IMG/VR virus record: IMGVR_UViG_3300028410_000746
Length of the DNA: 64,000 nt
Reading direction: 5' to 3' (one strand)
Source of the DNA: a virus
Lineage: Duplodnaviria > Caudoviricetes
Positions 1,138-19,986 of this stretch are shown here, piece by piece; the first letter of the stretch is position 1; each line of letters begins with the position of its first letter. The translations under genes were made by a program, and so were the position numbers. The notes beneath the pieces are model-generated. The model searched no databases and was not told the DNA's origin. It saw nothing but the letters and a program-made list of their open reading frames with translations.

Positions 1138-1638
1138 TCAACGGTTGTACTTCTTACCTACCACGCCAAACCGAGACGCCACACGTTGGCGAGTCATCTC
1201 CAGAGCTTGGGCCGATATGATCTTGAGCGCACGCTGAGCGCCGCGCTCAATGAAATTCTTACCTTCAAAGCCCGGATGTTTCCAGGCTCCTGACCTCATA
1301 GAGGCCTGTGTCGCAGTTCGGAACACCACCTGTCCGTTGTCCGTGACGATCGGGATCGGCCGGCGCGCCTTGGTCAAGTGTGTCATCTGGTACGCCTTGA
1401 CCCCGTTGTTCAGGTAACTCGCAGCGGGGTGTGAGGAACGGATGATGATCTGACCACCACGGACCTCCGACTCGAACGACGACAAGAGGTCGCTTGGTAC
1501 CGACTTGAAGGCGGTACGGCGGATCTCAGCCTTGACCTCCCGGAGGGCCGTGTCGGCGGCCTTCTCCAAGAAGCTCTTCGAGAGGGACGATGTATCGCGC
1601 AGTGGGGCCTCGGGCCTGGAGCGTTCGTTGTCGGGCAC
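1138..1638 (-). CDS. putative neck/tail-completion protein (HK97 gp10-like)
   Basis: C-terminal KHPGFEGKNFIERG motif typical of gp10-like proteins; AGGAGG RBS before GTG. Confidence 0.5.
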   Translation of the reverse strand: MPDNERSRPEAPLRDTSSLSKSFLEKAADTALREVKAEIRRTAFKSVPSDLLSSFESEVRGGQIIIRSSHPAASYLNNGVKAYQMTHLTKARRPIPIVTDNGQVVFRTATQASMRSGAWKHPGFEGKNFIERGAQRALKIISAQALEMTRQRVASRFGVVGKKYNR

Positions 1639-1719
1639 GGGGAGCCTCCTTGACCGTGCCCACTACCCGTGAGTACGCGGCCTGTATGCTTAGTAGGTGT
1701 CGGTACTCAGGAGACTCCA

Positions 1720-2316
1720 TCATCCCAGCTCCGGATACGGGCTCAGGCCCAGCCCTTCACGATGCGCTTGCACCGCACGCAGCAACATCTTGGCGTTGGC
1801 TTTTCCCAGGGACACCTTGACCTCCTGAGTGCCTTCGCACGTCCCATCCGAGATGAAGTTCACCACAGGCACACCCCAGTCTCGAACCTTGTTGTAAGCA
1901 CGCTCCGCATGCGACTCCAAAGTCTCCAGGATGATCACGTCATAATGGCGACCACGCAGACGCTCATCCCAGCTTCGATGCAGTACCGAGGAGAACGTTA
2001 GATTCTGCGTCTCGCTCCCCATGTACGTCGGGATGGCATAGATCGGCGTAGGAGCCACGTAAGCTACCCGAAAGCCCTCTTGAGACAGTTGCCGAGACGC
2101 GTAGCTGTAGCCCGCCCTTCGACCCAACGACACATGCAAGCGTCGTCCTCGGCCGCGCACGTACTCTACGTGGTCTGAGAAGACCGTCTCGCCCCGCGCG
2201 AAGGCTTCCAGGAGCAGCACGAGTCGATCGCCCTGGTTCGGGGTATTAAGCCGAAAACGCAACGTCGGCTCGTGGATACCCTCCAACTCACCTATGACCC
2301 AACGCGGAATAAGCAC
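1720..2316 (-). CDS. degenerate terminase-ATPase-like protein
   Basis: SLGRRAGYS / YVAPT / LRGRHYDVIILET align with TerL of this window (PIGRRSGKS / TVAPT / IRGYANIVVILDE); Walker A Lys and Walker B DE lost. Confidence 0.55.
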   Translation of the reverse strand: MLIPRWVIGELEGIHEPTLRFRLNTPNQGDRLVLLLEAFARGETVFSDHVEYVRGRGRRLHVSLGRRAGYSYASRQLSQEGFRVAYVAPTPIYAIPTYMGSETQNLTFSSVLHRSWDERLRGRHYDVIILETLESHAERAYNKVRDWGVPVVNFISDGTCEGTQEVKVSLGKANAKMLLRAVQAHREGLGLSPYPELG

Positions 2317-2324
2317 TACCTACC

Positions 2325-2621
2325 TCACTTATCGTCGACCAGATCCATGGATTTGGCCACGTCAATGACAATCCTGTTCAGAGCAGGGTACATCTTGTCG
2401 TCTTCCAAGTCGATCTTGCCGCCCAGCTCTTCTTTGAGTTCGGAGCGAACGCGCACGAAGAACAGCTCGGGCGCGTCATCTACGCCGAGCTGCTGAGTCG
2501 TCATCTCTCCAATCATCTTGTCGATGGACTCTTTGGGATCGAACGCGTCGTCGTCCGCAGCGTCGAGGAGGTTGGTGTATGCAGCCGCCACGCGGCGGGC
2601 CAGTCGGATTTGCTTCTTCAT
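2325..2621 (-). CDS. small acidic putative virion protein with RRVAAAY motif
   Basis: 98 aa ORF; N-terminal LARRVAAAY motif shared with other genes. Confidence 0.65.
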   Translation of the reverse strand: MKKQIRLARRVAAAYTNLLDAADDDAFDPKESIDKMIGEMTTQQLGVDDAPELFFVRVRSELKEELGGKIDLEDDKMYPALNRIVIDVAKSMDLVDDK

Positions 2622-2644
2622 CAGTCTCTCAAGGTTGAGGTCAG

Positions 2645-3631
2645 TTAGTGGATCATCAGTTGCGGTTTGGGATGCCAGTTACGCGAGAGTTGATGAGAGC
2701 AGGGAAGCACGGTCTCTAAAAGAATCGACAGGGCCTCCCCGGACTTGATCTCACTACCGCTAAAACGCACCACACTATACCCCCTCGCCAAGAACGACTG
2801 ATCACTCTGAGTGTCTGATGCCGCCTTAATCCGAGGATCTATAAACACAGTATCAAGACCGTGGAAGGCTTCCCCGTCGCACTGAACAACGACCACACGA
2901 CCGGAAGCATCACAGAGCTGTAAATCGGCTTCCCAAATTTGACGGTCGATTCCCGTGCCAAAAGTATACCAAGCGTTTCGTCTCCGAATTGAAACGCCCT
3001 CGCCTGCCAACTGCCCCACCAACAGAGCTTCCAAGCTTGACGGTCCGGTTAACCGTTGGAAGTGTTCCACACGGCCTTCCGTAGACAGCGTGTCCCACCA
3101 CCTACGAAAACCGACGTGGGCGGCTCGAATAGACCGACGATTCCCCCGAGACACAACTGCGCAATAGGCTTCTTCGTCGTAAACGGTCAAAAACAGGGCA
3201 CGGGCTTGGGAGTACCCCAACCCGAACTGAGACATGGCATACCTAACCCCTTCCCGTGATACCACGTCCGCCACCGCGCGAGCAGATAGCGTACCAGGAT
3301 GGAGACCCTCAAAGGTCTCAAAGAGGTACTCGATACTCAAAGGCTTCCAGGCCTCATACGACCTCTTGCTCATCTGGGAGCCTACAGAAACGCAGCGAGG
3401 GCACCTCTTCGCTTGAGAGCCCTTTTTGTCATAGACCTCCCAAACCGATCCACATTTCCGGCAAGTGAGTTGACACCGATACCCCGTCTTCCACGCATCC
3501 CACGACTCTCGCAAAACCACATGCGCCTCGTCAGTGGCGCAACTGATGTGGTTAATCCACGAATACACGCTTTTGACATGAGCGCCACAAGCTCCGCAAG
3601 AAGCGGGGAAGATGTGATAGGTGTTCTGCAT
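2645..3631 (-). CDS. free-standing Vsr/DUF559-like (PD-(D/E)xK) endonuclease, probable homing endonuclease
   Basis: Start MQNTYH at 3631, just after the upstream stop; N-terminal CxxC motifs; C-terminal EADL...VVVQCDGEAFH...D..D..FLARGYSVVRF; visibly lower GC than flanks. Confidence 0.65.
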   Translation of the reverse strand: MQNTYHIFPASCGACGAHVKSVYSWINHISCATDEAHVVLRESWDAWKTGYRCQLTCRKCGSVWEVYDKKGSQAKRCPRCVSVGSQMSKRSYEAWKPLSIEYLFETFEGLHPGTLSARAVADVVSREGVRYAMSQFGLGYSQARALFLTVYDEEAYCAVVSRGNRRSIRAAHVGFRRWWDTLSTEGRVEHFQRLTGPSSLEALLVGQLAGEGVSIRRRNAWYTFGTGIDRQIWEADLQLCDASGRVVVVQCDGEAFHGLDTVFIDPRIKAASDTQSDQSFLARGYSVVRFSGSEIKSGEALSILLETVLPCSHQLSRNWHPKPQLMIH

Positions 3632-3632
3632 A

Positions 3633-4991
3633 TCAATACATGATATTGGACCAGACCGGTGTTCGGCCGCGCTCTTCGATGCCCTCAGGCGGCTCGTCCG
3701 TACAGTCGTCGCCCGTCTTGTCCGTGATCTGCGGGTAACGCACTGCGTCATCCGAGTCATCCCAAAGCCACGGGCGCGTCTCGGGGAAAGCCAGGGCATC
3801 GGTACCCGTCACAGGAACCTTGTACCGGATATCGTGCCGGTCGAGGAGGTTCACAGAGAAGTGCTGCTGGAGCACGTTACCTCGGTTGGTCGGCATACGT
3901 ACCGCTCCAATCGAGTAACGGTCACCGTTGAGCTTGACGAAGAAGTCACGCTGGCTCAAGAGAGGCCGAGGGCCCGTCCAGACGTCATAGCGCATCTCTT
4001 CGTAACGACCACGATCCGTCTGACGGAGCGTACGCTCGGTGTCGGGCGGAACAAGGAGCTGCTCGTAAGGACCCTCGTAACCCCCAAGAATTCCAGTGCC
4101 GAAACAGCCGGGGCAGTTGTTACGAGGATGGGGGTCGTCCGCATCCTGGCGACAGCCGCACGGCACGCCCTGGTACTTGTGGATGAAGAGCTTGACGCGC
4201 TCTCCGCCCTGATCAATCAGCCAGCGGTTGCGACGGATCGCCTCTCGCCAAATGTAGTCCAGATTCTCCATCTGATGGATGTGGCGCGATTCCGTCCACT
4301 CAAGGGGCGTCTCCTTCGTTTGGAGATCCCAGGAGTCCACACCAACTGTCGTGATCCGCCAGAACGCACGCTTGAACAGATCCGTACGCAGGTGGTTGGT
4401 GTTGTAGGTGTAGTCGACCGTCACCGTGGAGCCCGGAAAGGGCAGCACGGGCTCAATGCGCTCATTGGTCCGTACGTCGTAGGTATAGGCCGTCTGAAGC
4501 TGAACCTCACCCGTCTCCCCGAAGACGCGTGCGGGCCGAACCTGCACGCCGTCTATCGTCACGATCACGTCGTCGGAGCTGTTCGCCGGGAGCCGGGGCT
4601 GTCCCGGCTGCATGATTGGGAAGTTAGCCGTCTTGAACGTCCAGTTGTCCGCCTCGTCCCCTCGGGAGAGGAAGCTCCCCGAAACATCCTCGCCCACCAC
4701 CGTCTGCTGCGTCGTCGCGTCCCTGTAGTACGTCGCCCCGATTGGGTTGATGTTGAGACGCTCGAACGGGCCAAACTCGGAGTCGAAGCTCCGGTAGATG
4801 TTGACCCCCAGGATCGTGAATCGGCCGTTGTTCGGCAAGAGCGCGGGCGCATCCCAGTACAGATCCACGGTCGGGAACGCATCATCTGCGTCGAACGCGT
4901 ACTGCACGTTGAAGTTCAACGGCTGTACCGGGAAGTCGGGATTGACCCGCTCCTTAACCGTTGTCCTTCTATCTCGGGGTCCTGCGGCCAT
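3633..4991 (-). CDS. putative head-closure/neck protein with Zn-binding motif
   Basis: 452 aa, typical codon use; CGC...CPGCFGTGILGGY motif; lies among neck genes. Confidence 0.5.
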   Translation of the reverse strand: MAAGPRDRRTTVKERVNPDFPVQPLNFNVQYAFDADDAFPTVDLYWDAPALLPNNGRFTILGVNIYRSFDSEFGPFERLNINPIGATYYRDATTQQTVVGEDVSGSFLSRGDEADNWTFKTANFPIMQPGQPRLPANSSDDVIVTIDGVQVRPARVFGETGEVQLQTAYTYDVRTNERIEPVLPFPGSTVTVDYTYNTNHLRTDLFKRAFWRITTVGVDSWDLQTKETPLEWTESRHIHQMENLDYIWREAIRRNRWLIDQGGERVKLFIHKYQGVPCGCRQDADDPHPRNNCPGCFGTGILGGYEGPYEQLLVPPDTERTLRQTDRGRYEEMRYDVWTGPRPLLSQRDFFVKLNGDRYSIGAVRMPTNRGNVLQQHFSVNLLDRHDIRYKVPVTGTDALAFPETRPWLWDDSDDAVRYPQITDKTGDDCTDEPPEGIEERGRTPVWSNIMY

Positions 4992-5038
4992 GCGCGGTGA
5001 TCTCCAGGTGGGTTGGATCGAACACGACCACCGCGACT

Positions 5039-5052
5039 ATAAAAGGATAACC
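5039..5052 (-). promoter_or_regulatory. putative late-promoter motif GGTTATCCTTTTAT
   Basis: 48 nt upstream of ATG 4991. Confidence 0.5.
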
Positions 5053-5058
5053 ACGCGC

Positions 5059-5448
5059 TTACGCGCTCAGGCACGGCTCCAGGAAGTCCTCCTGAGACAG
5101 GCAGTAGGCGTAGCCGTGAGGATCAACCTGCAAGATGGCACCCACGAAGTGTGCCCCCGCCTCCATGATGAACAGGTCCGGCAAGTGGCTCAGGATGTGC
5201 TCCTGCTCCTCGTAGTCGTTATGAGGCCACACGTAGTGACACTCAGTCCCGTCCTCCTGAACCTCCACGATGAGAACGGTCTTGAGAGAGAACATCTCCT
5301 CCAACCACATGTAGAGGTCCTCAGAAGCACTCGACTCCGAGCGTAGACGCTTCTGCTTGTCCTTACCGATCGGCGTGTAGTGTACCGTGAATTCCGGGTG
5401 GGTTGGGGGTGAGAAACTGTAGAGCGTTTGAGGTCGCATCGTCCACAT
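5059..5448 (-). CDS. hypothetical protein
   Basis: 129 aa ORF with GAGGGG RBS. Confidence 0.6.
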   Translation of the reverse strand: MWTMRPQTLYSFSPPTHPEFTVHYTPIGKDKQKRLRSESSASEDLYMWLEEMFSLKTVLIVEVQEDGTECHYVWPHNDYEEQEHILSHLPDLFIMEAGAHFVGAILQVDPHGYAYCLSQEDFLEPCLSA

Positions 5449-5529
5449 AATCCCCTCGCATTGCTGCTGGTTGCGGGTTGCTTCCGGAAGCTCAAGCTCC
5501 CTGGAACACCTACAGAGAGGATGAGTAGA

Positions 5530-5997
5530 TTAAGGCTCGAAGGCCACAGCATCGACAGGCTGACCCATCTCCTCCAAGCCCTCACACAGGGGGCAGTTGA
5601 TACCGTGCTCCCAGCACACCTTGCCGGCTTGGTGTTTCGGAGAGCCCTCATGGCTACGCGCCGGAGCGGCTGGCCCGGCCGGACGACTCATCCCTACCCA
5701 GGTATCCCCACTCTCTATGCGCAGAAGAGACCAACGCCGACCGCCATAAACGAAAGTCCGACCCGAACGCTCCTGCGACTCCCACCACATCCGAATCGTA
5801 GCCAAGGAGGTGGTCTCCAGGCCCAAGGACTCATTGGCCTCGAACCTGAAATACAAGAACCATCCCGCCTCATAGCCGCTTGACGAGACACGCAGCTCTA
5901 CGACCTCATGCGAGGTAAACAAGGGCGCACCGATGTGAGGTAAAAGCAGCTCCTCCAGGAAGTCTGACGTCCGGCTCACAGCCTCTCGCTCATCCAT
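5530..5997 (-). CDS. hypothetical protein with C-terminal CxxH..CPxC motif
   Basis: 155 aa ORF downstream of a sigma70-like promoter. Confidence 0.6.
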   Translation of the reverse strand: MDEREAVSRTSDFLEELLLPHIGAPLFTSHEVVELRVSSSGYEAGWFLYFRFEANESLGLETTSLATIRMWWESQERSGRTFVYGGRRWSLLRIESGDTWVGMSRPAGPAAPARSHEGSPKHQAGKVCWEHGINCPLCEGLEEMGQPVDAVAFEP

Positions 5998-6032
5998 AAC
6001 ACACCTTCATACCCTTGTAACGTAGTAGACGT

Positions 6033-6066
6033 AAAATACCCCTTGACGCTTGGTAGTGTCAAGGGG
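6033..6066 (-). terminator. intrinsic terminator with an embedded sigma70-like promoter
   Basis: CCCCTTGACACT-ACCA-AGCGTCAAGGGG stem followed by TATTTT; TTGACA (6062-6057), 18 nt, TATTTT (6038-6033). Confidence 0.55.
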
Positions 6067-6091
6067 CATATACGTGGACCTCAAGAGAGAC

Positions 6092-6901
6092 TCAGACCGA
6101 CTCGGCCTCGTAGCGGCCGTTGCCCATGTTGCGAATGACGTCTCGGCTGGTCTGGGGTATCTCGACCAGGATCGAACGAACATAGTTGCTGCGGTTGTAC
6201 TCATCGTCATAGTAGTAGTCGTCGTCAAACGAGCTACGCGCCTCCTTGTAGACGTCGACACGCACGACATCACCCGCCTCAACCCGACGGAGCACCTCTT
6301 CAAGGCCACCGCGACGAACCGAAGGTGCGCCCTTGAGCGCATCCCAGCCTCGGAAGGCCTCAGCCGCATGCGTGTAGTCCGCGCCGCGCAGCTTCTCCTT
6401 CTGGAGAACGTAGTACACGAACTTGGCTGCATGACTCGCACCCGCCATGCGTACAGACGCCTCGCGCCAGCCGTCTCGCGTCTTCTCGATCTTGCCCTTG
6501 CTCGTCATGGGTATTTCGACCGTAATGTTCTGCTTGAGATCACCACGCACCATCTCATCCTCATCCTCATCGTACTCACTGAAGTACACGAACACGTCCA
6601 CCACCGTACCCGGAGAAGCCGAGGTGAGCGCCTCATCCAGGGGCTCAATGTCGGTGATGCCGTTCATAGACGACATGTTACGCTTCCAGGAGTCCCAGTC
6701 CTTGTAGACGATGGCCTCGTGAAGGTACTTCTTGCCCGACGCGCGCTCCTTGCGTAGAGCTTGCCGAACGATCTTGGCTGCGTACGAAGCAGCAGCGGCA
6801 GTACGCGTAGACGCCAGGGAGGCGATCACAGGCTTGAGGTGAGGACGCAGCTCAGGCTTGGTTTTGCCGAGGCGAATGAGACGGGCTTTGAGATCAGACA
6901 T
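6092..6901 (-). CDS. leader-tagged putative virion protein with a tandem internal duplication
   Basis: Starts MSDLKARLIRLGKTKPELRPHLKPVIASL; two similar segments (GTVVDVFVY..NITVEIPMTS / GDVVRVDVY..SILVEIPQTS). Confidence 0.7.
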   Translation of the reverse strand: MSDLKARLIRLGKTKPELRPHLKPVIASLASTRTAAAASYAAKIVRQALRKERASGKKYLHEAIVYKDWDSWKRNMSSMNGITDIEPLDEALTSASPGTVVDVFVYFSEYDEDEDEMVRGDLKQNITVEIPMTSKGKIEKTRDGWREASVRMAGASHAAKFVYYVLQKEKLRGADYTHAAEAFRGWDALKGAPSVRRGGLEEVLRRVEAGDVVRVDVYKEARSSFDDDYYYDDEYNRSNYVRSILVEIPQTSRDVIRNMGNGRYEAESV

Positions 6902-6947
6902 GGCGTACGTGCTCCGGGATAGAAGAAGGTATACACCTTCCCCCTGT

Positions 6948-6961
6948 ATAGACGAGTTACC
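6948..6961 (-). promoter_or_regulatory. putative late-promoter motif GGTAACTCGTCTAT
   Basis: 47 nt upstream of ATG 6901. Confidence 0.4.
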
Positions 6962-6966
6962 GCACA

Positions 6967-7137
6967 TCACCACCGAAAGCGAAGGGTGCCCATGAGATAC
7001 GAATACAGGAGCGGGCTCACGTAACACACCAACGCCAGCCATCGGTCGACCTGGAAGTACGGTGCAAAGCCTACAAACACTACGCCCGATACCAGCATCA
7101 ACACGTACACTGCACGTCGGAGATGAGTAAGAGTCAT
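6967..7137 (-). CDS. small two-TM membrane protein
   Basis: MTLTHLRRAVYVLMLVSGVVFVGFAPYFQVDRWLALVCYVSPLLYSYLMGTLRFRW; GGAGAGG RBS. Confidence 0.5.
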   Translation of the reverse strand: MTLTHLRRAVYVLMLVSGVVFVGFAPYFQVDRWLALVCYVSPLLYSYLMGTLRFRW

Positions 7138-7221
7138 GAAACCTCTCCAGGTAAAGGTAGACGAAACATCCCCGCTTGCGCGAAGAGTTGACACGGGGCA
7201 CACGTTTTGCTGTACCACGCC

Positions 7222-7791
7222 TCACCCCGGAGAGTCGCAACCGTCAAGGGGTTTCGATCTTTGCAGGAGACCCAACACCTGCTGCTCCCTCAAGATCTCC
7301 GCTTCCTCGTCCTCTTCGGGAAGCCCACCCTCCAGGATGCCCACCAGCTCGAAGATGCCATGCGGGTCGAACTCGCCCGTACTTGCGTCGAGGACCCAGG
7401 ACCTACCCCCGAGTAGATTCTCAGGGCATGTATGCTCCTCGACGTAGTAACGCATGTCACTGAGGCGCTCTTCAGCGTTCGCGGCGCGCCCGTAATCCAG
7501 GGTCTCGCGTGCGAGGACGAAATGCCCGGCTCGGATAACCTGCGTCAACTGGGACGCCTTGGTGCCCGTGGTAACCTCGACCACCTCCTCCCCCAGGATC
7601 TTCCCGCTCACGCTTACGAGACAGTTATCGCAGTACCAAGGGCCAAATCGACGCACCTGCGTAGAGTCCGCATCAAAGAGGTGGTCGACCGTACTCATGT
7701 CCTCACCGCAGTCCGGGCAGCACAAGAGCGTGCGAGTGTCTTTTCGTGTGTATGACACAGTGTCTCCGTCATAAAAATACCTCCGTAACAT
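7222..7791 (-). CDS. Zn-ribbon hypothetical protein
   Basis: CPDC...CDNC pair; 189 aa; start uncertain. Confidence 0.6.
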   Translation of the reverse strand: MLRRYFYDGDTVSYTRKDTRTLLCCPDCGEDMSTVDHLFDADSTQVRRFGPWYCDNCLVSVSGKILGEEVVEVTTGTKASQLTQVIRAGHFVLARETLDYGRAANAEERLSDMRYYVEEHTCPENLLGGRSWVLDASTGEFDPHGIFELVGILEGGLPEEDEEAEILREQQVLGLLQRSKPLDGCDSPG

Positions 7792-7800
7792 ACGGAGGTA
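7773..7800 (-). terminator. intrinsic terminator closing the mini-CRISPR transcript
   Basis: Perfect 10-bp stem TACCTCCGTA-TGT-TACGGAGGTA followed by TTTTT. Confidence 0.65.
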
Positions 7801-7804
7801 ACCC

Positions 7805-7834
7805 AGGGTACCACGAGAGAGTGAAGCCCGTCAA
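7805..7834 (-). promoter_or_regulatory. sigma70-like promoter
   Basis: TTGACG-N18-TACCCT with upstream TG (extended -10). Confidence 0.5.
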
Positions 7835-8001
7835 GGGTCCGAAGACCTGACAAGCTCCCGGCGCCGTCTCCCCTACTCCTGAAGGTCACCCCCCACAGGG
7901 ACATCACAGTGTAACTCGCCCGGCTCCATCGAACGCTTATGCCCAAAGGCCACGAAAGGCACGGAGTACATCAGGGTCTCGCCCATCCCATTATAATGAA
8001 T

Positions 8002-8090
8002 GGGACATCCCCGCTCGCGCGGGGAACACTATACAGTGCGTGGAGTGGGCGGCGTCAAGGGCGGGACATCCCCGCTCGCGCGGGGAACAC
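8002..8090 (-). CRISPR. orphan type I-E mini-array (2 repeats, 1 spacer)
   Basis: Two identical 28-nt repeats GTGTTCCCCGCGCGAGCGGGGATGTCCC (8063-8090, 8002-8029), 61-nt period, palindromic CCCCGC/GCGGGG stem; resembles the E. coli-type I-E repeat GTGTTCCCCGCGCCAGCGGGGATAAACCG. Confidence 0.85.
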
Positions 8091-8189
8091 TCTTCAAATG
8101 TTCAAGCCTTCGGAAGTGTACCTAACCCCCTGTATTCGCTCAGGAATCCTGTTGGCATGGGGTGCGCCGTTTTGCTTTACCAACTCTTA
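8091..8189 (-). promoter_or_regulatory. CRISPR leader-like sequence
   Basis: AT-richer non-coding stretch 5' of the first repeat; ends AACATTTGAAGA-repeat; contains GAGTTGGTAAAG, similar to GTTGGTAGA in I-E leaders. Confidence 0.55.
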
Positions 8190-8228
8190 CCCTGTGGTAT
8201 ACCCCTGTGGTATACCCCTGTGGTACAC
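8190..8228. repeat. 3 x 13-bp tandem repeat CCCTGTGGTA(T/C)AC
   Basis: Units 8190-8202, 8203-8215, 8216-8228; contains GGTATACC palindromes. Confidence 0.9.
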
Positions 8229-8248
8229 CTCTCCGACTCATGAGAAGG

Positions 8249-8277
8249 ACCCTACCTCAAGAGAAGGGGGACGTCAA
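8249..8277 (-). promoter_or_regulatory. sigma70-like promoter driving the mini-CRISPR unit
   Basis: TTGACG-N17-TAGGGT pointing toward the leader and array. Confidence 0.55.
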
Positions 8278-8304
8278 GCCTCTGTTGCCAAAAACTCTCC
8301 CAGG

Positions 8305-8329
8305 CGCAGGCGGACGACGCCCGCCTGCG
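8305..8329 (-). terminator. probable terminator after the split neck gene
   Basis: 9-bp stem CGCAGGCGG/CCGCCTGCG; T-run a few nt downstream. Confidence 0.4.
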
Positions 8330-8353
8330 TCTGGATCTCACCCTCCCACAGGG

Positions 8354-9001
8354 TCAGATTCCCATGAATTTACGGGGGGTTAGCGTACCGTTACCTGTAA
8401 TCGGACCAAAACTCGACCTCACGCCCAGGCCATAGCGGCTCTGTTTCAGGCCACGCATGTACTTGACCGTACGAGCCTTGCCGTCGGTCATCATCTTCTC
8501 GAACTGCTGCTCGGCGTTGCCCTTCAAGGACTCGTACTTGGAACTGCGCTCGATGTCCAGATTGATACCGCCAATGGAGTACGAGTTATGCGCCAGGATG
8601 CCGTTGGTGAGTACGAAGTTCTCATCTCCAGGCACACTCAAGTCATAGGTGTATACACGAGCAAGGGCTTCCGTGTGCGCCGTCAAACGAGATCCCGAAG
8701 CCTGAGAAGAACCCTCCACACATACCGCCAAGGCATCCCCTACCTTGAGATCCTGAGCCAAAGCTTCACGTACCGCCCCATCTGGCCGGTACTCAAAGAC
8801 CGAGTGATCCCCCGTACACGTCACAACCCTGCCCTGCGCATCCTCCAGCCGCACCATCGGCTTGTGTGGTGTATGGTGACGCATCACATCAGAGACCCGA
8901 GACCAACGTACACGCCCCGTAGAAGTCTCGACGCTACGAACCTCCAAAGAACCCTCTCGCAAGGCGTTCAGGAGCCACTCTCGCTCATTATCGCTCAACA
9001 T
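8354..9001 (-). CDS. split intein C-fragment (139 aa) plus C-extein (76 aa) of a putative neck protein
   Basis: Block B TCTGDH, block F YDLSVPGDENF, block G LAHN followed by Ser+1 (codon 8582-8584); extein SYSIGGINLDIERSSKY... Confidence 0.85.
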   Translation of the reverse strand: MLSDNEREWLLNALREGSLEVRSVETSTGRVRWSRVSDVMRHHTPHKPMVRLEDAQGRVVTCTGDHSVFEYRPDGAVREALAQDLKVGDALAVCVEGSSQASGSRLTAHTEALARVYTYDLSVPGDENFVLTNGILAHNSYSIGGINLDIERSSKYESLKGNAEQQFEKMMTDGKARTVKYMRGLKQSRYGLGVRSSFGPITGNGTLTPRKFMGI

Positions 9002-9939
9002 ACCTGCACCTTATTGAAGAATCGTATAGCCCGGTCCAAACACCCGTCGTAATCGCGCTGCAACTCATGCTCCCACAGCACCAACACCTCCCAACCACCT
9101 CGCGCAAGGTACGCCAACTTGGCGAGGTCTCTTCTGCGATTGGAGGGAGGCCCCTCCAGACCACATAACAAACAGGAGTGCCAGTATCAGCCATGTATCT
9201 CCAACACCTTGCGCATCTCCGGCTGCACCTCATCACAGGTGTAGTACCCAATAGCGTACTCCGTCTCCAAGTCCTGCACCCCATTGCGAACCAATGCCGC
9301 CTTAAAGTTCAGATGAAGCTGTGAGGTGGCCTGAATAAACGTGCGCGCGTGCGCGGCTGACTGTCGAGACTGCTCCGGGTGTGACGCATGCCAGGACAAG
9401 ACAGCCTCGCGCAAATCACCGCCCTCCTGCCACCGCTCCAGGGATTGAGCGGATACGGCCTGCCGCCGCCCCTCCGTCTGGTTCAATGCGATGAACTCAG
9501 CCCTGCGCGTACCCTCTTGCATCCGCTCCCGCGAAGTCTGAGCAATCCGCAGGCGAGTGTGTACCCCTTCAGGAGACTGAAAATGCTCTAACATGGCCCG
9601 TGACTGGTGAGCCTTCTGTTCTGGGCTCTTCCGTCGACGTACAGTAGTCGTAGCACACGCCAGAGGCGCTTTCGGGTACTTCGTACGATACCCGTCCAAA
9701 TCAAGCGAGGCGCATGCCTGCAAGTGTAGGGATGTAATCGCAGCCACCCAGGCCCCACAACAACGACACACTACGTAATGCGTACCCTCCACCAACGCGT
9801 CTAGCGACGCCACAGACACACACGTTCGGCGCCCGGCCTTACGCGCTTGAACGTCACCGCTCTCGATCAAGGTAACCAAATGCCGTGCGTTCAGTCCATG
9901 CCTGAGTTGCGCCTGTCGTTTTGATATCCACTCACTCAT
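8995..9939 (-). pseudogene. Vsr-like homing endonuclease with an in-frame TGA at 9187-9189 (nonsense, readthrough or Sec)
   Basis: ATG 9939 overlaps the IntN stop; HTH, CxxC Zn finger, then ETEY..CDE..VLEIHG*YWHSC..RRDLAKLAYLARGGWEVLVLWEHE; the frame continues 64 codons to a TGA overlapping the ATG of IntC. Confidence 0.75.
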
Positions 9940-10702
9940 GAGCCTCAGCTTCCACCTGGAGGGCATACAGCTCTTCCATCGACACCTGAATCTCCTGCCC
10001 TCCAGACACACGTACCGTAACCAAGGTCTCCCCGGCAAGCGAGAATTCGTCCGCAACCCAATTGAACGTGAGCGCCATCGCAGCCTGAGCCATGGCCCCC
10101 GTGATGATCCACACGATCCAATTTCGCTGAGCGGACACCATCATGTCCATGCTCAGGTAACCCGTAGCCGGGGGGTAGGAGTTGATGAGCATGGTCGCCT
10201 GATCCATGTACTCAAGCAGCTCCTCGTCCTCCCAGATGTAGGCGAACACGCGATTGAACTGGTTCACGGTCCCCGACGAGGTGGGAGGCCTGAAGTGGTA
10301 GTTGCGGTCAGGGTTGTTGTCCCTCAAACGGATGCGGATGCGGCGGATCATATCGAGCTGCGTCGCCGTGTAACGCGTCGTCAGGAGCTGGGAGGGTTCC
10401 ACGATCTGGAACTCTTGAAGGAGCGTGTTCTCAGGATCACCCGACAGCTCCACGAGGGTCCAACGAATACGATAGAGACCGAACGCTACGAACTCGGGCA
10501 CCTGGAAGTGGGCGTAGTATTGACCCACGCCCACGCGCACGGGCACGTGAGCCGGAGGTCCAATGAGGACCTCGCTGCCCGTCGTGACGTCGTAGAGCGC
10601 GTATGTGATGGAGAACGGGTCGACAGGCACGTCCAAGCTGTCCAGAACCTCGATGGCGAGGTCCGTAGGCGTCGTGATAGACCCTCGTGTCAGCTCAAGC
10701 AT
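9932..10702 (-). CDS. N-extein (220 aa) of a putative neck/head-tail protein plus split intein N-fragment (36 aa)
   Basis: ...FNWVADEF|SLAGETLVTVRVSGGQEIQVSMEELY: intein block A starting with Ser at 10042; joined exteins read ADEF-SYSIGG. Confidence 0.8.
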   Translation of the reverse strand: MLELTRGSITTPTDLAIEVLDSLDVPVDPFSITYALYDVTTGSEVLIGPPAHVPVRVGVGQYYAHFQVPEFVAFGLYRIRWTLVELSGDPENTLLQEFQIVEPSQLLTTRYTATQLDMIRRIRIRLRDNNPDRNYHFRPPTSSGTVNQFNRVFAYIWEDEELLEYMDQATMLINSYPPATGYLSMDMMVSAQRNWIVWIITGAMAQAAMALTFNWVADEFSLAGETLVTVRVSGGQEIQVSMEELYALQVEAEAHE

Positions 10703-10726
10703 GCGAACTCCGGGAAAGAAGGGGAA

Positions 10727-10747
10727 GCCGCCCCCACGGGAGGCGGC
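10727..10747 (-). terminator. possible terminator
   Basis: GCCGCCTCC-CGT-GGGGGCGGC stem followed by TTCCCCTTCTTT. Confidence 0.4.
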
Positions 10748-10761
10748 CCCTCGCGCGGCAC

Positions 10762-11925
10762 TCAGAAGTGCTCACGGAGGAAGTTGGAGAACGTCCACGC
10801 GACCTCTTCAAGATCGGACGGAAGGTCCTCCAGCATACGATAATGTGTACGGTCTTCGAGGCCTTCCACGAGGCTCTCAGCCGTGGAAGCGAGGTCCTCA
10901 CTCATCTTGACAACCTTGGCCAAAGACGACTTGGAGAGGGCGGAGTAGGCTCCGCGACGGAGAAGGTCGAGCCCTCGCATGAGGTCCTTGACGCCATCGA
11001 CATCACGCTCAAGCTTCTTGAGGTCCCGGCCATAAGCCTTCAAGATCCGGACCAAGGTGCCCTCGACGACATCCTCGTACGCGCCCTGAATGCGGGACTC
11101 CTTCTCAGCCTCTACCGATGCCGAGAAGTCGTTCTGCATCAAGGTCTGGATTCGATCGAAGGCGCGCTTGACCTCGGCAGTCTTGGCGACCGCCTTGAGA
11201 GCCTTGGAGGGGTCCGAGAACATGGGGCTGAACTCGCGCGGAGTGCCTCCATCACCGGAACACTCCATGTAGACCTCATAGGAGTACGTGCCCATCTTCT
11301 CCAGCATCTCCTCGACGAAGAGCGGAGCGGACGCGTCCATGTCAACGACGTCAGCCGGCTTGGGAGTCACAGGCACGAGGTCCAGCTCAGGAGCAGCCTG
11401 ATCACGAGGGTTGAGGAGAGCGTCTTCCAGGCCTCGCTGGTTCTGACGCAGGCTCTCAGCGCGATCACGCTGGGCCTGCTGATCCTGCTTCGTGACGAAC
11501 GGATGCCCCTTGAGGTAATAATTGTCCCATGCCACCATGTCCGCATTGGCAGGATCGAGAGCCATCTCACGGAGCACGAGCTGCACGCGGTTGGCGAAAT
11601 CCTGGAAGGCCTGAAGCGTGCTCCGGCTCACGTCCCCCGTGAACCCCTTGCGGTACTCGTCCGGGAAGTTGTTCTGGAACTCCAGGTCGAGGAGACCTTC
11701 CACAAGCTGCCCACTGAGGCCGGGCCCCATATCCCCACGCACGTCTGCGCTGTACGCCACACGAAGCGCTCCGTACGCGCTAGCGTGCAGCCTTCGACGC
11801 TGGGCCGAACGAGTAAGCACCTCCTGACGAGTCACCGTCAGGGAGGCGATCACCGGCTTGAGGTGTGCACGCAGCTTCGGAGTTGAGCTGCCAATGCGAA
11901 TGAGACGTTGCTTTAGAGTGCGCAT
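10762..11925 (-). CDS. leader-tagged putative virion protein
   Basis: Starts MRTLKQRLIRIGSSTPKLRAHLKPVIASL; 387 aa, helical. Confidence 0.75.
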   Translation of the reverse strand: MRTLKQRLIRIGSSTPKLRAHLKPVIASLTVTRQEVLTRSAQRRRLHASAYGALRVAYSADVRGDMGPGLSGQLVEGLLDLEFQNNFPDEYRKGFTGDVSRSTLQAFQDFANRVQLVLREMALDPANADMVAWDNYYLKGHPFVTKQDQQAQRDRAESLRQNQRGLEDALLNPRDQAAPELDLVPVTPKPADVVDMDASAPLFVEEMLEKMGTYSYEVYMECSGDGGTPREFSPMFSDPSKALKAVAKTAEVKRAFDRIQTLMQNDFSASVEAEKESRIQGAYEDVVEGTLVRILKAYGRDLKKLERDVDGVKDLMRGLDLLRRGAYSALSKSSLAKVVKMSEDLASTAESLVEGLEDRTHYRMLEDLPSDLEEVAWTFSNFLREHF

Positions 11926-11937: not shown

Positions 11938-12177
11938 TTAGGCTGCGTGACAAAGACGTTTGAGTGTCCGGACTTCGTTGGTCAGCGTCAGTGCGCTGAC
12001 CTGTGCTCGGCCCGAAAAGTAGTCGTTCTTTCGCTCCCGCATATCGCCCTGGTTCGCGAAAACGAAGTAGGTCTTGGACCCCTGACGTACCGCTTCCATG
12101 AACGGAATATCAATGGCCTTGAGGTACGCAGCGAAGTACAGATCGGAGGTTCGGTAATCAAGCAGGACTGACGACAT
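11938..12177 (-). CDS. small protein resembling DUF5659
   Basis: TSDLYFAAYLKA motif; 79 aa. Confidence 0.5.
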   Translation of the reverse strand: MSSVLLDYRTSDLYFAAYLKAIDIPFMEAVRQGSKTYFVFANQGDMRERKNDYFSGRAQVSALTLTNEVRTLKRLCHAA

Positions 12178-12195
12178 TCCACAACTCCTGGACTA

Positions 12196-12657
12196 TCAGA
12201 TGTAGCGTACGGTCAACTTGGAGCCCACGTACTGACGCACGATGGCCTGAATCTCCTCATCGGACACGACCCCAGACACGGGAGCGAATGCGAAGGACTC
12301 GTCCAGGAACACCTTACCATTGTAGGCCGACACCACCCCGGAGTGTATATCATCAGGAGAGACCCTACGCCCGGAAGCACGAGACAACGCCGTCAAGATG
12401 TTGGCCGCCACGCCTCGCAGCTCCCGGCCACGCACGTTCACGAGCTGGTAATCCACCTCCGCGCCAAAGTCATGACGTATGAGCAATGAGACGCTATAGC
12501 CCCCATCACGTGCCGACAGACTACGAGAGAGCGTCAGGGCCGCCGTCGTCGATCCCTGAGCCTGCTTATGCAGGGAGGCGATCACAGGTTTGAGGTCCGC
12601 ACGAAGTTCAGGCTTGGCGGTCCCCATACGAATCAGTTCGGCTTTGAGATCGGACAT
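12196..12657 (-). CDS. leader-tagged putative virion protein
   Basis: Starts MSDLKAELIRMGTAKPELRADLKPVIASL; GAGGG RBS. Confidence 0.75.
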   Translation of the reverse strand: MSDLKAELIRMGTAKPELRADLKPVIASLHKQAQGSTTAALTLSRSLSARDGGYSVSLLIRHDFGAEVDYQLVNVRGRELRGVAANILTALSRASGRRVSPDDIHSGVVSAYNGKVFLDESFAFAPVSGVVSDEEIQAIVRQYVGSKLTVRYI

Positions 12658-12678
12658 GGGCGTAGCCCTCATAGAAGA

Positions 12679-12763
12679 GCCGCGAGGAACCGCTGCGCAG
12701 TACGAAGGCTGGTCCTTTGCAGGACCGTGGCACTCGCCGTAGTCAGGGCGGCTCCTCAGCGGC
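12679..12763 (-). ncRNA. candidate structured RNA (multibranch, GNRA-capped hairpin) in 5' UTR
   Basis: 15-bp closing stem with one bulge and one G-U on the minus strand; internal GGTCCT-GCAA-AGGACC hairpin. Confidence 0.4.
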
Positions 12764-12798
12764 TTTGTTTTGAAAAACGCATCAGACACCGTAAGGCC

Positions 12799-13245
12799 TC
12801 AGAGCATGAAGAGCGCGTCGCCAGCGTCGGTGAAGACCTTGATCCAACCCGCATCGAGGAGGCCCTTGACCACACCACGATCGAACGAGAGCAGGAACTG
12901 ACCCGTCTCGATGAGCGGGTACGAGATGAGAGCCTGGATGGCCTCAGCCTGGGGAACCGTGGTCGCCGCGATGCCAGTCATGGCGTCTGCGGAGGCCTGA
13001 ATGGTCGCCACCGAAATGTCATCCGCGTCAACGGTCGACAAGATGAACACTGCAAGCTCCGCTGCAACAGCGGTGCCTCCGAGACCCTTGAGGTACTCAG
13101 TGAGGTCTCCCGTCGAGTCGACGGGGTTGATGTAGCGCTCCTGGCCCGTGGGGTAAAGAGTCTGCTCGCGCAACGTCTGCTTCTTGGTCAGGTCATTGAG
13201 CAGCACACGCTCAAAAGGGGTACCGACCACTGCGATCTTAGCCAT
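12799..13245 (-). CDS. putative structural protein
   Basis: 148 aa Ala-rich ORF with AGGAG RBS. Confidence 0.7.
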   Translation of the reverse strand: MAKIAVVGTPFERVLLNDLTKKQTLREQTLYPTGQERYINPVDSTGDLTEYLKGLGGTAVAAELAVFILSTVDADDISVATIQASADAMTGIAATTVPQAEAIQALISYPLIETGQFLLSFDRGVVKGLLDAGWIKVFTDAGDALFML

Positions 13246-13273
13246 GATGTTTCTCCTTGCTCGTTTCCGAGTG

Positions 13274-13621
13274 TCAATCGAGGTGGCCGGTACGCTCTAG
13301 CCGTACCAGCTCTTCTAGAATTTTACTCAGGTGCACGAAGACCGTACCCACCTCCCGAAAGAGCATGGCATGGTCTCGTGTCCTGACGCGCCGTATACGC
13401 TCACTGGACAACCGCAACTCTCGCTGCGACGCTTGGATCGAACCCGCTACGGGCAAGCCCGACACGTCCAGATCCACTACCTCCTCTACCAATTCATCCA
13501 CTACCGCAACTACCAGCACCAACACGTTGAGGTCTAGCAGGCGGCGCGGCTCCCAGTTCAAGCCCTTGAAGCCCGAGGCCTGGGAGGCGAGAACTGATCG
13601 AATACCACGTATGTCCGCCAT
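13274..13621 (-). CDS. hypothetical protein
   Basis: 115 aa ORF filling an operon gap. Confidence 0.55.
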   Translation of the reverse strand: MADIRGIRSVLASQASGFKGLNWEPRRLLDLNVLVLVVAVVDELVEEVVDLDVSGLPVAGSIQASQRELRLSSERIRRVRTRDHAMLFREVGTVFVHLSKILEELVRLERTGHLD

Positions 13622-13632
13622 GCCAGGACCTC

Positions 13633-14247
13633 TCAGATCACCGTGACGGCTGCCGTCGCGGTCTTCGTGTTGGAGGTCACCGTGACCGAAGCCACGTTGT
13701 TTGACTCGTCCGTAGCGAACCCATGAAGAGCTGCCGGGATCGTGATGGCGGTGTCCGTGAAGACGCCACCCCCACCAGTGATCTCAGTAGCCGTCAGGGT
13801 CACCGTCGCCGCGTTCGCGGCAGTGACGATCACCGAAGAAACATCGGGAGCAATCGACAGGAACGCCGTACCCGTGATCTCCACGCGGTAGTCGTCGGTG
13901 CCATCGGTAGCGTCAACCGTATCCTGCTCTGCCGTCGCAACAACCGGAGCCACGAGGGTACCCGTCGCGATGTCGATCACAGTGACGAGACCCCCGGCCT
14001 CAAAGCCTGCGATCACGCCGTGGTCACGGCTCAAGAGAACATCATCCGTAGGGATGAGGTCAATGAAGCCGGGCTGAGTGGTGTCAACGTCGACACCCCC
14101 ACCGTTGAAAGACTTGCGGTTGTACGTCACGTAGACGTCCTGCTTGCTGTAGTCGTCGAAAGGACGACGCGGCGTGCCGTCCTCGATGTCGTTGACGAGC
14201 AAGTCGGCAAGCTGCGACTGCGTATGGACAAGGCGAATGAGCGCCAT
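13633..14247 (-). CDS. putative virion protein with a C-terminal Ig-like (IPT) beta domain
   Basis: VEITGTAF...SVIVT...ITIP...VTVT Thr/Val-rich pattern; AGGAGG RBS. Confidence 0.55.
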   Translation of the reverse strand: MALIRLVHTQSQLADLLVNDIEDGTPRRPFDDYSKQDVYVTYNRKSFNGGGVDVDTTQPGFIDLIPTDDVLLSRDHGVIAGFEAGGLVTVIDIATGTLVAPVVATAEQDTVDATDGTDDYRVEITGTAFLSIAPDVSSVIVTAANAATVTLTATEITGGGGVFTDTAITIPAALHGFATDESNNVASVTVTSNTKTATAAVTVI

Positions 14248-14304
14248 GGAAGCCTCCTGTTCAGAGCGGGTGTGGGGTCACACGTGTATCACACGGATGG
14301 ATAT

Positions 14305-14318
14305 ATCGAAACATTATA
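14305..14318 (-). promoter_or_regulatory. variant of the putative late-promoter motif, TATAATGTTTCGAT
   Basis: 58 nt upstream of ATG 14247. Confidence 0.3.
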
Positions 14319-14338
14319 GACTCCAGCACCTATGCTAC

Positions 14339-15286
14339 TCAGAGCATCCTTTGAGCGTTCAACGTCACCGCGATGTCGACCGTGGTAGCGCCTCCATCCC
14401 CACGGAGCGTGATGGTCGAGATGTTGACCCGGTTGTCTCGAATCGACTCTCCAGCAGCCACGGTAAGCTCGGCCGTACCCGCACCGAAGCTCACCAGCAG
14501 ATCCACCCCACCCGTGTTGGTCATCGTATACGAGCTGATCTGACGAGGAAGCTCCAAAGGCAACGCATCAGCAAGGGTCGCACCAGCCGGAGCAGTACCC
14601 ACCAGGGAGAGCATGGTGTGTGACTCCAGGAGCTGCTTCTCGGTCAACAGGATGTTCGTAGAGGAGGTCTCCCCCGCGAACGGGACCGCACCGAACATCG
14701 GGATGAACTTGAAGAACTGTACATCGGCGTCGATCCGGCCGAAGTCCGCCAAGTCAAAGACCACGCGCGTGTACTTACGCAATTGGTTAGCGTTGATACT
14801 CAAGCCATCCAGAGCCCTGCGATCACGCCCCGGCGTCGGGGAGACGAAACCCCGCACCGAAGAGATCTCCTCAACTGAGGTGAACACCGCATCCCAATTG
14901 TCCGCGAACTGCATATCGAAGTGCGTCGGGCCTTCAGGACGAACACGAATCGCGCCCTCCTCATCCGTGGTATCGACCATGGGGTTAATCTGTCCCCCAA
15001 AATGATCGTGACGCAGGCGGAAGGTAGTCGACGTGGAGCCTGCAAAGGCACTTACGGGTACCGAAGAGGCCTGAATGGCGTTGATGAACTCAGTAACTAC
15101 GGCTGCGGAGCTGTCCGCTCCCGGTACCGGGTCCGCCACCACGAACGTCACACCTGCGACCGTCAAGAGGAAGTCCCCACCGCTGACGGTGCCATCCGCG
15201 ATCGTCACGAGCATCCAGTCGTGGCGAGGGATCAGGACCTCCACCAGACGGTTGTAGCGCCGGAGCGTGTAGCTTTGTAGAGTCAT
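14339..15286 (-). CDS. putative structural protein (beta-rich)
   Basis: 315 aa ORF, GGAG RBS, structural-gene context. Confidence 0.6.
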   Translation of the reverse strand: MTLQSYTLRRYNRLVEVLIPRHDWMLVTIADGTVSGGDFLLTVAGVTFVVADPVPGADSSAAVVTEFINAIQASSVPVSAFAGSTSTTFRLRHDHFGGQINPMVDTTDEEGAIRVRPEGPTHFDMQFADNWDAVFTSVEEISSVRGFVSPTPGRDRRALDGLSINANQLRKYTRVVFDLADFGRIDADVQFFKFIPMFGAVPFAGETSSTNILLTEKQLLESHTMLSLVGTAPAGATLADALPLELPRQISSYTMTNTGGVDLLVSFGAGTAELTVAAGESIRDNRVNISTITLRGDGGATTVDIAVTLNAQRML

Positions 15287-15305
15287 GAGTAGGTCTCCTA
15301 TCGGA

Positions 15306-15695
15306 TCACTTGCGCAAGCGGTCGCGCTTGATCAGTCGGTCGTAGGTCTCGGTGATCTTGCCTGCGTCGCGCGCGGCATCGCGTGCGTCCTCCCAGGTGT
15401 CCGCTACCTCCCCCTCAAAGTTGGGGAGCAGCTCCGGAACCTTGTGGTTGGTGCGCATGCGCTGGCCCATGTACTTCGAGCGGTTCTTCCGGTAGGTCTT
15501 CTCTTTGAAGTTCTTGTCCGCCCACGCATCTCCCGCGAACGAGATCTGCGTTCCCTTCGGATTGAACAGAAAGAACGCCCTCTCGCCACACGCGTCGCAT
15601 GGCACTCCGGAAGCCTTGGCCTCCGGGAACGCCTCAACGGACATGCTGCGCTCGCTGACCTGCTCGCACGTCGAACATTTGAAATCGTACTTCAT
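15306..15695 (-). CDS. FmdB-family zinc-ribbon protein
   Basis: MKYDFKCSTC...PCDACG pattern. Confidence 0.7.
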   Translation of the reverse strand: MKYDFKCSTCEQVSERSMSVEAFPEAKASGVPCDACGERAFFLFNPKGTQISFAGDAWADKNFKEKTYRKNRSKYMGQRMRTNHKVPELLPNFEGEVADTWEDARDAARDAGKITETYDRLIKRDRLRK

Positions 15696-16105
15696 GAATC
15701 CCTCGTTTTAGCGGTATAGAGGCCCGCGACGCGGCGAGCCAGGGTACTGGCCGTGTAGACGCCCCGAAGAGGCGACACGACGCTCTTGGACACGTAGGGA
15801 GCATACTGGTCTCCGATCCGAGCTGCCAGCGCTTCGATCCTCTGCTGACACAACATCATCGTAGCGACCAGCTCCACGGCCTCGCGATTGACTCCCGAAT
15901 GAATCTGCTCGACATCACCGAGGCCATCCTCATCAAGGCCCAGCTCACTCGCGAGCATAGGGAGGTCATTGCACCGGGACATCACGTTCTTGAGCAGATC
16001 CGTGGTCGCCTTGTACTGAGACGCGCACAGATCAAGGGACTGACGCATCTCCCGAGCCTTGTTGGCAAACGTCGAGATGGTGCCGGCTTTACGTGTATCA
16101 GACAT
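15692..16105 (-). CDS. helical hypothetical protein with a C-terminal RRVAGLY motif
   Basis: GAGGAG RBS; ATGA coupling to the next gene. Confidence 0.65.
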   Translation of the reverse strand: MSDTRKAGTISTFANKAREMRQSLDLCASQYKATTDLLKNVMSRCNDLPMLASELGLDEDGLGDVEQIHSGVNREAVELVATMMLCQQRIEALAARIGDQYAPYVSKSVVSPLRGVYTASTLARRVAGLYTAKTRDS

Positions 16106-16107
16106 GA

Positions 16108-16488
16108 TCACTCCTCAAGCTGAGACAAGACCGCTGCGGCGTGCTTACACACCCGATGGCGGCCTTCCGGGTCTCGCGTGGTTGGACGTACTGCGGTACC
16201 TCTTGGAGATCCCAGGAGGTAGCCCTCACGAGACGCGTGGTACTCAGGACCCTGGTAAACCCAGAAGTCACAGGAGCACGACAGGCGGACGTTGGACTCC
16301 CCCCTCTCCAGACGTACATCATACTCACCAACACGCCAGGACCCCTCTCTCACGAGACGAGGACGCAGCGAGCGCGAACGCTCCAGGAGAGACCTGTCCA
16401 ATCCCTGGAGGATCTCCCCCCGACTCGCACCAAGGCGCGTGCTATGTATACGAGCTACCCGGAGGGCGAGGCTCTCCAGCGTGCTCAT
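16108..16488 (-). CDS. SWIM zinc-finger protein
   Basis: LSCSC...VCKH motif. Confidence 0.7.
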   Translation of the reverse strand: MSTLESLALRVARIHSTRLGASRGEILQGLDRSLLERSRSLRPRLVREGSWRVGEYDVRLERGESNVRLSCSCDFWVYQGPEYHASREGYLLGSPRGTAVRPTTRDPEGRHRVCKHAAAVLSQLEE

Positions 16489-17051: not shown

Positions 17052-17052
17052 C

Positions 17053-19974: not shown

Positions 19975-19986
19975 AGCTCCCACGGA

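Follow-up and report, generated by a model that had tools for sequence, protein, structure and literature searches.

A one-spacer CRISPR unit far from the cas genes of a lake-water phage is probably a satellite crRNA gene of the phage's own type I-E system

Positions 7773-8334 of a 64,000-nucleotide stretch of viral DNA (Duplodnaviria; Caudoviricetes; IMG/VR record IMGVR_UViG_3300028410_000746), referred to here as the window, contain a small CRISPR unit in which two 29 nt repeats enclose a single 32 nt spacer. The unit lies on the minus strand and is probably a satellite CRISPR RNA (crRNA) gene of a type I-E CRISPR-Cas system that is encoded by the phage itself, apparently without adaptation genes. 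Most likely it feeds one extra crRNA to the phage's own Cascade-Cas3 and not, as a sequence-only reading of the window had proposed, to a borrowed host complex. The evidence consists of the anatomy of the unit, the homology of its leader and repeats to an array adjacent to the cas genes, and the presence of the interference genes on the same contig; the steps by which the unit would act are modelled on canonical type I-E systems through homology to them.

The IMG/VR record is a 127.7 kb excerpt (CheckV completeness 29%), and its designation as a 'provirus' is probably a trimming artefact. The window is collinear with a much longer contig from lake water, k141_181878 (ena:ERZ27315555:k141_181878; 373,477 bp). 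The proteins encoded at window positions 3633-4991 (452 aa), 8354-9001 and 57077-59245 are present on this contig at a constant offset of +89,243, and the contig DNA that was fetched is 100% identical to window 1633-6991 and 5854-11501, the mini-array included. The sequence-only reading had described the unit as an orphan with no cas gene in the window, and indeed there is none in the 64 kb window nor in the whole 127.7 kb record, but this is untrue of the 373 kb genome. Contig k141_181878 carries genes for Cas3 (876 aa), Cas7 (448 aa), Cas6e (243 aa), Cas5e (236 aa) and Cas8e (735 aa) at approximately 296.7-304.7 kb, arranged in the order cas3-cas7-cas6e-cas5e-cas8e and recognized in a Pfam scan with E = 1.6e-18 to 5.6e-58. 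Because a full type I-E interference operon, together with an array like the unit, is thus located on the same contig, the 'orphan' label is wrong.

The operon was located through a relative of 437,490 bp with terminal repeats, the only complete relative found in IMG/VR, which carries a Cas8e-Cas11 fusion, Cas5e, Cas6e, Cas7 and Cas3; its Cas3 served as the query with which the Cas3 of the 373 kb contig, 49% identical, was found. The 373 kb contig is collinear with the relative, and the 127.7 kb record corresponds to its bases 132-277 kb. Since the relative's cas region lies outside this covered stretch, a lack of cas genes in the window and the record is no guide to the genome as a whole. The Cas8e of the contig aligns end to end with the Cse1+Cse2 fusion of the relative, from which we infer that Cas11 is the C-terminal part of Cas8e, the two forming a Cas8e-Cas11 fusion. 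In both phages Cas8e is 725-735 aa long and has a Cse2 (Cas11)-like C-terminal part, with a mutual identity of 27%; the genes occupy bases 15750-17957 of the k141_181878 stretch 292,026-314,656 and bases 1651-3828 of the relative's stretch 12,001-32,000. Neither Cas1 nor Cas2 was found in the 127.7 kb record, in the 22.6 kb around the cas genes or in the complete 437 kb relative. The contigs of three lake-water runs gave no match to the relative's cas7-cas3 at 80% likeness, a comparison that is uninformative because the two cas3 products are only 49% identical.

Directly after cas8e lies an array of eight repeats whose repeat is that of the mini-array except in the hairpin loop, and whose terminal repeat ends in A, as does the second repeat of the mini-array. 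The leaders of the two arrays are identical at about 92 of 98 aligned positions (94%; about 98-110 nt), and their similarity breaks off precisely at the start of the mini-array's own promoter and of a 13 bp tandem element. Judged by its sequence, the unit represents a relocated paralogue of the array that sits next to the phage's own cas genes, since both the leader and the repeat (outside the loop) match the array after cas8e. All of the arrays seen in this genome share the 5' handle ATGTCCC or ATGTTCC, though the 5' parts of their repeats differ. The arrays of the relative have the handle ATGGTCC, and its Cas6e is 39% identical; this fits a handle that has co-evolved with the phage's own Cas proteins.

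The components of the unit, and one hairpin downstream of it, are as follows (window coordinates).

8284-8334, minus strand: upstream intrinsic terminator (arms at 8300-8316 and 8318-8334, U-run at 8290-8294)
8249-8277, minus strand: promoter, read from the sequence (TTGACG at 8272-8277, 17 nt, TAGGGT at 8249-8254)
8190-8232, minus strand: three tandem 13 bp copies, GGTRTACCACAGG, between the promoter and the conserved leader
8091-8202, minus strand: conserved CRISPR leader, homologous to the cas-adjacent leader of the same genome
8062-8090, minus strand: CRISPR repeat 1, 29 nt, type I-E class, last base G
8030-8061, minus strand: spacer, 32 nt, no protospacer match
8001-8029, minus strand: CRISPR repeat 2, 29 nt, last base A
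7801-8000, minus strand: trailer of about 200 nt, carrying the promoter of the next gene (TTGACG at 7829-7834, TACCCT at 7805-7810)
7773-7800, minus strand: downstream intrinsic terminator (10 bp stem at 7778-7800 and UUUUU at 7773-7777)
7162-7190, minus strand: repeat-like hairpin found in a loose repeat scan and also matched by the terminator scan

The core of the unit is much as the sequence-only reading had it: the repeat-spacer-repeat with its 61 nt period, the leader and the three 13 bp repeats are all present on the minus strand, and the spacer, 32 nt at 8030-8061, has exactly the sequence given there. The two repeats are identical over 28 nt, their sole difference being the final base (G or A), and the chance expectation of a duplicated 28-mer in 64 kb is about 1e-8. 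The start-to-start period of 61 nt and the spacer length of 32 nt are both as in type I-E. Each repeat folds to give a 7 bp stem, a 4 nt loop and an 8 nt tail, the form of a Cas6e substrate (-15.1 kcal/mol when folded alone), and the repeat hairpins are also predicted to form within the 481 nt predicted transcript.

The unit is bounded by two terminators. The upstream one had been placed at 8305-8329; it is present, with wider limits (arms spanning 8300-8334), folds with -29.5 kcal/mol (z = -4.1) and ends gene 8354-9001, such that it is predicted to insulate the CRISPR unit from read-through of that gene. The downstream terminator at 7773-7800 is confirmed both by the terminator scan and by its fold (-14.9 kcal/mol, z = -4.1). 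The predicted start of the next promoter (7834-7805) would sit inside the 5' arm of this terminator, so that only read-through RNA would be expected to form the 7778-7800 hairpin and the next gene's own RNA would not. The trailer has no homology to the 437 kb relative or to the trailer of the cas-adjacent array. A decayed third repeat inside the trailer was considered and is unsupported. Neither of two open reading frames (ORFs) overlapping the unit, 7939-8367 (plus strand) and 7695-7946 (minus strand), matches a Pfam or PHROG family, and both were treated as spurious.

Between the promoter and the conserved leader, the 13 bp tandem looks like a triplicated distal end of the ancestral leader; its last copy aligns with GTACCGCAGGG, where the cas-adjacent leader starts. 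The tandem has no second occurrence in either phage genome, and it could serve as an operator.

The promoter at 8249-8277, described as sigma70-like in the sequence-only reading, is recovered as a member of a motif class but not by conventional rules. A strict sigma-70 scan calls no promoter anywhere in 6900-8500, and the -10 element of the unit's promoter matches at 3 of 6 positions. The 127.7 kb record, however, contains 13 occurrences of TTGACR-N16-18-TANNNT on the minus (coding) strand and none on the plus strand, compared with 1.2 +/- 1.0 in shuffled sequences, an enrichment of about ten times, and 10 of the 13 lie outside the interior of long ORFs. Examples, of the form (c)cTTGACR-N16-18-TANNNT, are found at window positions 44306, 8277, 7834 and 6062. 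The promoter call was kept solely because this motif class is enriched in a strand-specific manner, and the class probably represents the phage's host-polymerase promoters.

The most likely scenario for the origin and action of the unit is that its leader and repeat were copied from the array after cas8e in the same 373 kb genome, and that after relocation the copy gained its own sigma-70-type promoter, the triplicated 13 bp element and the flanking terminators. Transcription would start near 8242 and stop at the 7778-7800 hairpin, and the phage Cas6e would cut at the 3' base of each repeat hairpin to yield one 61 nt crRNA, composed of an 8 nt handle (AUGUCCCG), the 32 nt guide and a 21 nt hairpin handle. 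The phage Cas8e-Cas11, Cas7 and Cas5e would assemble on this crRNA, and Cas3 would then degrade matching DNA, most likely that of a rival phage or another mobile element, or else a host locus. The perfect repeats, the canonical 32 nt spacer and the hairpins predicted in the transcript may be taken as signs of upkeep.

The same features bear on whether the unit is instead a neutral, disused relic of an intragenomic duplication or recombination. The genome does hold copies that are decayed or empty (the single-repeat leader at base 15,207 of the record and window 7162-7190, both described below), no protospacer was found for the spacer, and there is no array at the syntenic spot of the 437 kb relative. 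Drift would be expected in a relic and is seen in the neighbouring solitary copy; the unit by comparison has identical repeats, a leader that is 94% conserved, an acquired promoter of the phage's own class and two strong flanking terminators; we therefore consider a relic quite unlikely.

Several points weigh against a satellite crRNA gene that serves the phage's own complex. The mini-array is about 199 kb from the cas operon in contig coordinates (about 166 kb for a circular genome), and by E. coli rules its promoter has a weak -10 element. The Cas7 of this genome was missed by a word-based search for which the relative's Cas7 was the query, and the systems of the two phages have therefore strongly diverged. 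With no protospacer found, no protospacer-adjacent motif can be read and interference activity cannot be judged. Transcription of the unit and the processing and loading of its RNA are inferred by analogy, and a host type I-E complex whose handle is compatible could take up this RNA as well; bacterial repeats that equal the unit's outside the loop are known, that of Roseomonas oleicola being an example.

The last of these points raises the question of what the repeat says about a host. Its assignment to the type I-E class is solid at the level of sequence, and it matches bacterial type I-E repeats, as the sequence-only reading had anticipated. A 21 nt repeat core is identical in more than 120 bacterial loci, many of which are multi-repeat arrays with a 61 nt period, in Actinomycetota, Alpha-, Beta- and Gammaproteobacteria (Pseudomonadota), Myxococcota, Gemmatimonadota, Acidobacteriota and others. 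Many bacterial type I-E repeats differ from the full repeat by one or two mismatches (a Pseudoclavibacter repeat by one), and that of Roseomonas oleicola is the mini-array repeat except in the loop. Multi-repeat arrays of Streptomyces, Roseomonas and Candidatus Azophilus have the 5' handle variant ATGTCCC in their consensus, and the variant has single matches in many further taxa. The exact 28 nt repeat is present in none of 185,579 GTDB species genomes and on no other IMG/VR contig, and the best match to the repeat is provided by the phage's own arrays. No Rfam family reaches its gathering score in the window, the best permissive hit being CRISPR-DR28 (18.9 bits against a cut-off of 35). The repeat had been thought to point to the host lineage; because near-identical repeats are spread over many phyla, it does not, on this comparison of sequences, identify one. 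We note that seven unrelated IMG/VR viral contigs (one at 49% and six at 65-71% G+C) share a repeat with the ATGTCCC handle, which occurs in them in short I-E-like runs or beside degenerate repeat-like hairpins, with no obvious cas genes within the fetched stretches.

These bacterial repeats lend some weight to a model in which the unit is cas-less in function, feeding a host type I-E Cascade in the manner of archaeal virus mini-arrays so that competitors are excluded, and gaining its spacers through host Cas1-Cas2. Repeats near-identical to that of the unit do exist in bacteria (Roseomonas outside the loop, Pseudoclavibacter with one mismatch), Cas1 and Cas2 were not found in the searched parts of the genome or in the complete relative, and the leader-repeat junction is conserved at 13 of 13 positions between phages that share only 27-49% identity in their Cas proteins. 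The phage nevertheless encodes a complete interference module, so that a host Cascade is not needed, and has a cas-adjacent array of the same leader and repeat; no array with the exact 28-mer was found among the 185,579 species genomes. As the sole role of the unit such a dependence on the host is very unlikely. Reliance on host Cas1-Cas2 would not preclude use of the phage's own Cascade, and a host Cascade may be used as an addition.

The spacer itself does not reveal a target. The sequence-only reading had proposed that it be compared with viral and host databases, and no protospacer emerged. The exact spacer has none in IMG/VR, and a form degenerate at every sixth position has none in IMG/VR, JGI metagenomes or GTDB genomes; blastn against INPHARED gave only a 17 nt chance match, and the spacers of the other arrays have no INPHARED match. 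There is likewise no protospacer in the phage's own 127.7 kb record or in the 437 kb relative, and the best alignment in the 22.6 kb cas region is 19 of 32 positions, at chance level, with only generic 9 nt promoter seeds. The spacer starts with CCCTTGACG, which is the -35 context of the phage's own promoter class, and ends in TGTATA; it shares seeds of 9-10 nt with several phage promoters and nothing longer. These are hints that the protospacer may be a promoter of a related phage.

They would also fit a regulatory role, in which the RNA from the unit acts as an anti-CRISPR or as a regulator resembling a crRNA (Racr, Cracr or CreR), either soaking up Cas proteins or steering Cascade to a promoter that is then repressed without DNA cutting. 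Such an RNA could exploit the 9-10 nt seeds that the CCCTTGACG start and TGTATA end provide at several phage promoters, and viral solitary repeats and Cracr arrays directed against type I-E systems are documented (PMC10651486; 10.1101/2024.10.29.618823). A decoy would, however, poison the phage's own Cascade, no extended partial match lies upstream of or within the phage cas region (best 19 of 32), and the unit has a full repeat-spacer-repeat with perfect repeats and a canonical 32 nt spacer. The suggestion of an RNA anti-CRISPR made in the sequence-only reading is accordingly weakened, and we regard a regulatory RNA of this kind as very unlikely.

The complete relative provides a context for a satellite crRNA gene that operates with the phage's own complex. 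It contains at least 11 small arrays as well as solitary repeats, all on one strand; some are placed between cas genes, others at distances beyond 100 kb from them. The leader type of the mini-array recurs in five of these arrays, with the final 13 nt ahead of the repeat unchanged (13 of 13). The leader-junction pattern was not found in JGI metagenome contigs, and in IMG/VR only in the 437 kb relative. Across the family, the repeat stems differ by compensatory changes from G-C to A-U in which both arms of the stem take part. No array is present at the relative's syntenic spot or at the syntenic loci of relatives found through the upstream gene. Within the parts of the relative at bases 12,001-32,000 and 402,001-412,000, arrays lie between cas7 and cas6e, between cas6e and cas5e, and after cas8e. 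The repeats within a single array of the relative vary in both loop and stem, with compensatory changes, which is unusual for arrays that grow by copying of the first repeat. Two spacers of different arrays (with array repeats starting at 28,933 and 25,977) are close variants of each other.

Conservation of the leader-repeat junction between two phages with such divergent Cas proteins is compatible with spacer uptake through host Cas1-Cas2, which the sequence-only reading had inferred, and can be set beside the behaviour of E. coli, in which this junction is the region required for adaptation. One may combine the observations into a more elaborate reading, in which the arrays are autonomous leader-repeat cassettes with their own promoters, the three 13 bp copies act as an operator, the promoter-like guide (CCCTTGACG ... 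TATA) is aimed at the promoter of a close competitor, and the junction is kept because host Cas1-Cas2 and IHF load spacers in trans. Taken as a whole this is unlikely; if true, single guides would be expressed under separate regimes, possibly timed or repressor-controlled.

In its dimensions the unit resembles a canonical type I-E array (E. coli K-12 or Thermus type), with a 29 nt repeat, a 7 bp GC stem, a 4 nt loop, an 8 nt 5' handle, 32 nt spacers, a 61 nt period and an AT-richer leader by the first repeat. It is unlike such an array in having a single spacer, in lying far from cas with no Cas1-Cas2 found in the searched parts of the genome, in its viral carrier, and in a repeat that scores below the Rfam CRISPR-DR thresholds.

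CRISPR-Cas systems without Cas1, Cas2 and Cas4 have been described in huge phages (Al-Shayeb et al. 2020, PMC7162821). Within the portions of that report used here, the systems resemble the present one in that the phage exceeds 200 kb, comes from an environmental metagenome and carries interference genes and compact arrays, and the likeness extends to Cas1 and Cas2, which were not found in the searched parts of this genome. Those portions concern type I-C variants and class 2 systems and say nothing of the arrangement seen here, a complete type I-E system with Cas3 and a Cas8e-Cas11 fusion, its guides being distributed over many separately promoted small arrays, one of them a single-spacer unit far from cas. 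Mini-CRISPR arrays are also borne by the viruses SPV1 and SPV2 of Sulfolobales (Medvedeva et al. 2019, PMC6858448), and the unit is like these in being intergenic and in having one or two spacers and a promoter-bearing leader similar to that of full-size arrays. SPV1 and SPV2 carry no cas genes and rely on the host, whereas this phage has its own Cascade and Cas3, and the leader here matches the phage's own array and not a host array. A role in conflicts between related viruses has been proposed for the SPV1 and SPV2 arrays; for targeting of that type, no match to the spacer was found in the 437 kb relative or in any collection. With the RNA anti-CRISPRs and Cracr arrays (PMC10651486; 10.1101/2024.10.29.618823), for which type I-E examples exist, the unit shares a promoter-driven repeat RNA encoded on a phage away from cas. 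Type I-E Cracrs have pseudo-spacers of 21-24 nt that match host cas promoters and degenerate repeats, and Racrs are solitary repeats; the unit differs from both in its 32 nt spacer between two perfect repeats and in the matching Cas proteins encoded on the same element.

An array on a viral contig without cas genes is easily misread as orphan or host-dependent when, as here, the contig is a 29% excerpt. What is added is a clear case of a leader-repeat cassette copied far from cas and equipped with its own regulatory signals. This shows an organization of guides in which copies of leader-repeat units are dispersed over the genome and acquire promoters and terminators of their own, and it bears on how phage CRISPR systems lacking adaptation genes diversify their set of guides and regulate it. 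Being one locus with no target match, the unit adds modestly to what is known of huge-phage CRISPR-Cas.

Further arrays are scattered over this genome. An array of nine repeats and eight spacers lies upstream of the window at bases 10,650-11,166 of the record, and its repeat has the 5' part CCCCTCCCC... and the same handle. About 4 kb from it, at bases 15,179-15,347 (minus-strand start at 15,207), is a near-copy of that array's leader with one repeat behind it, and both this solitary leader-repeat copy and the nine-repeat array have TTGACA-N18-TACCRT promoters. Two more arrays, with two further repeat variants, are situated upstream of cas3 in the k141_181878 stretch 292,026-314,656, one on the cas strand (bases 8787-9260 of that stretch) and one on the opposite strand (bases 6260-6857). 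A small zinc-ribbon protein is encoded before cas3 on the same contig.

The repeat-like hairpin at 7162-7190 occupies the 85 nt gap between gene 7222-7758 and an ORF for a 56 aa membrane protein (6967-7137). It matches 16 of 17 repeat-core positions and has the tail ATGTTTCG, and the GGTACAGCAAAACG element upstream of it resembles part of the mini-array leader. Its fold is no better than those of shuffled sequences (z = -1.1), and it may be a decayed solitary repeat or equally a plain terminator.

Among the genes that flank the unit, the downstream gene 7222-7758 has no relatives in IMG/VR. The gene upstream of the unit (in the region of window 8354-10702) matches a Pfam intein splicing domain (E = 5e-14), and only its last 80 or so residues (about 133-215) match the intact homologue in the relative.

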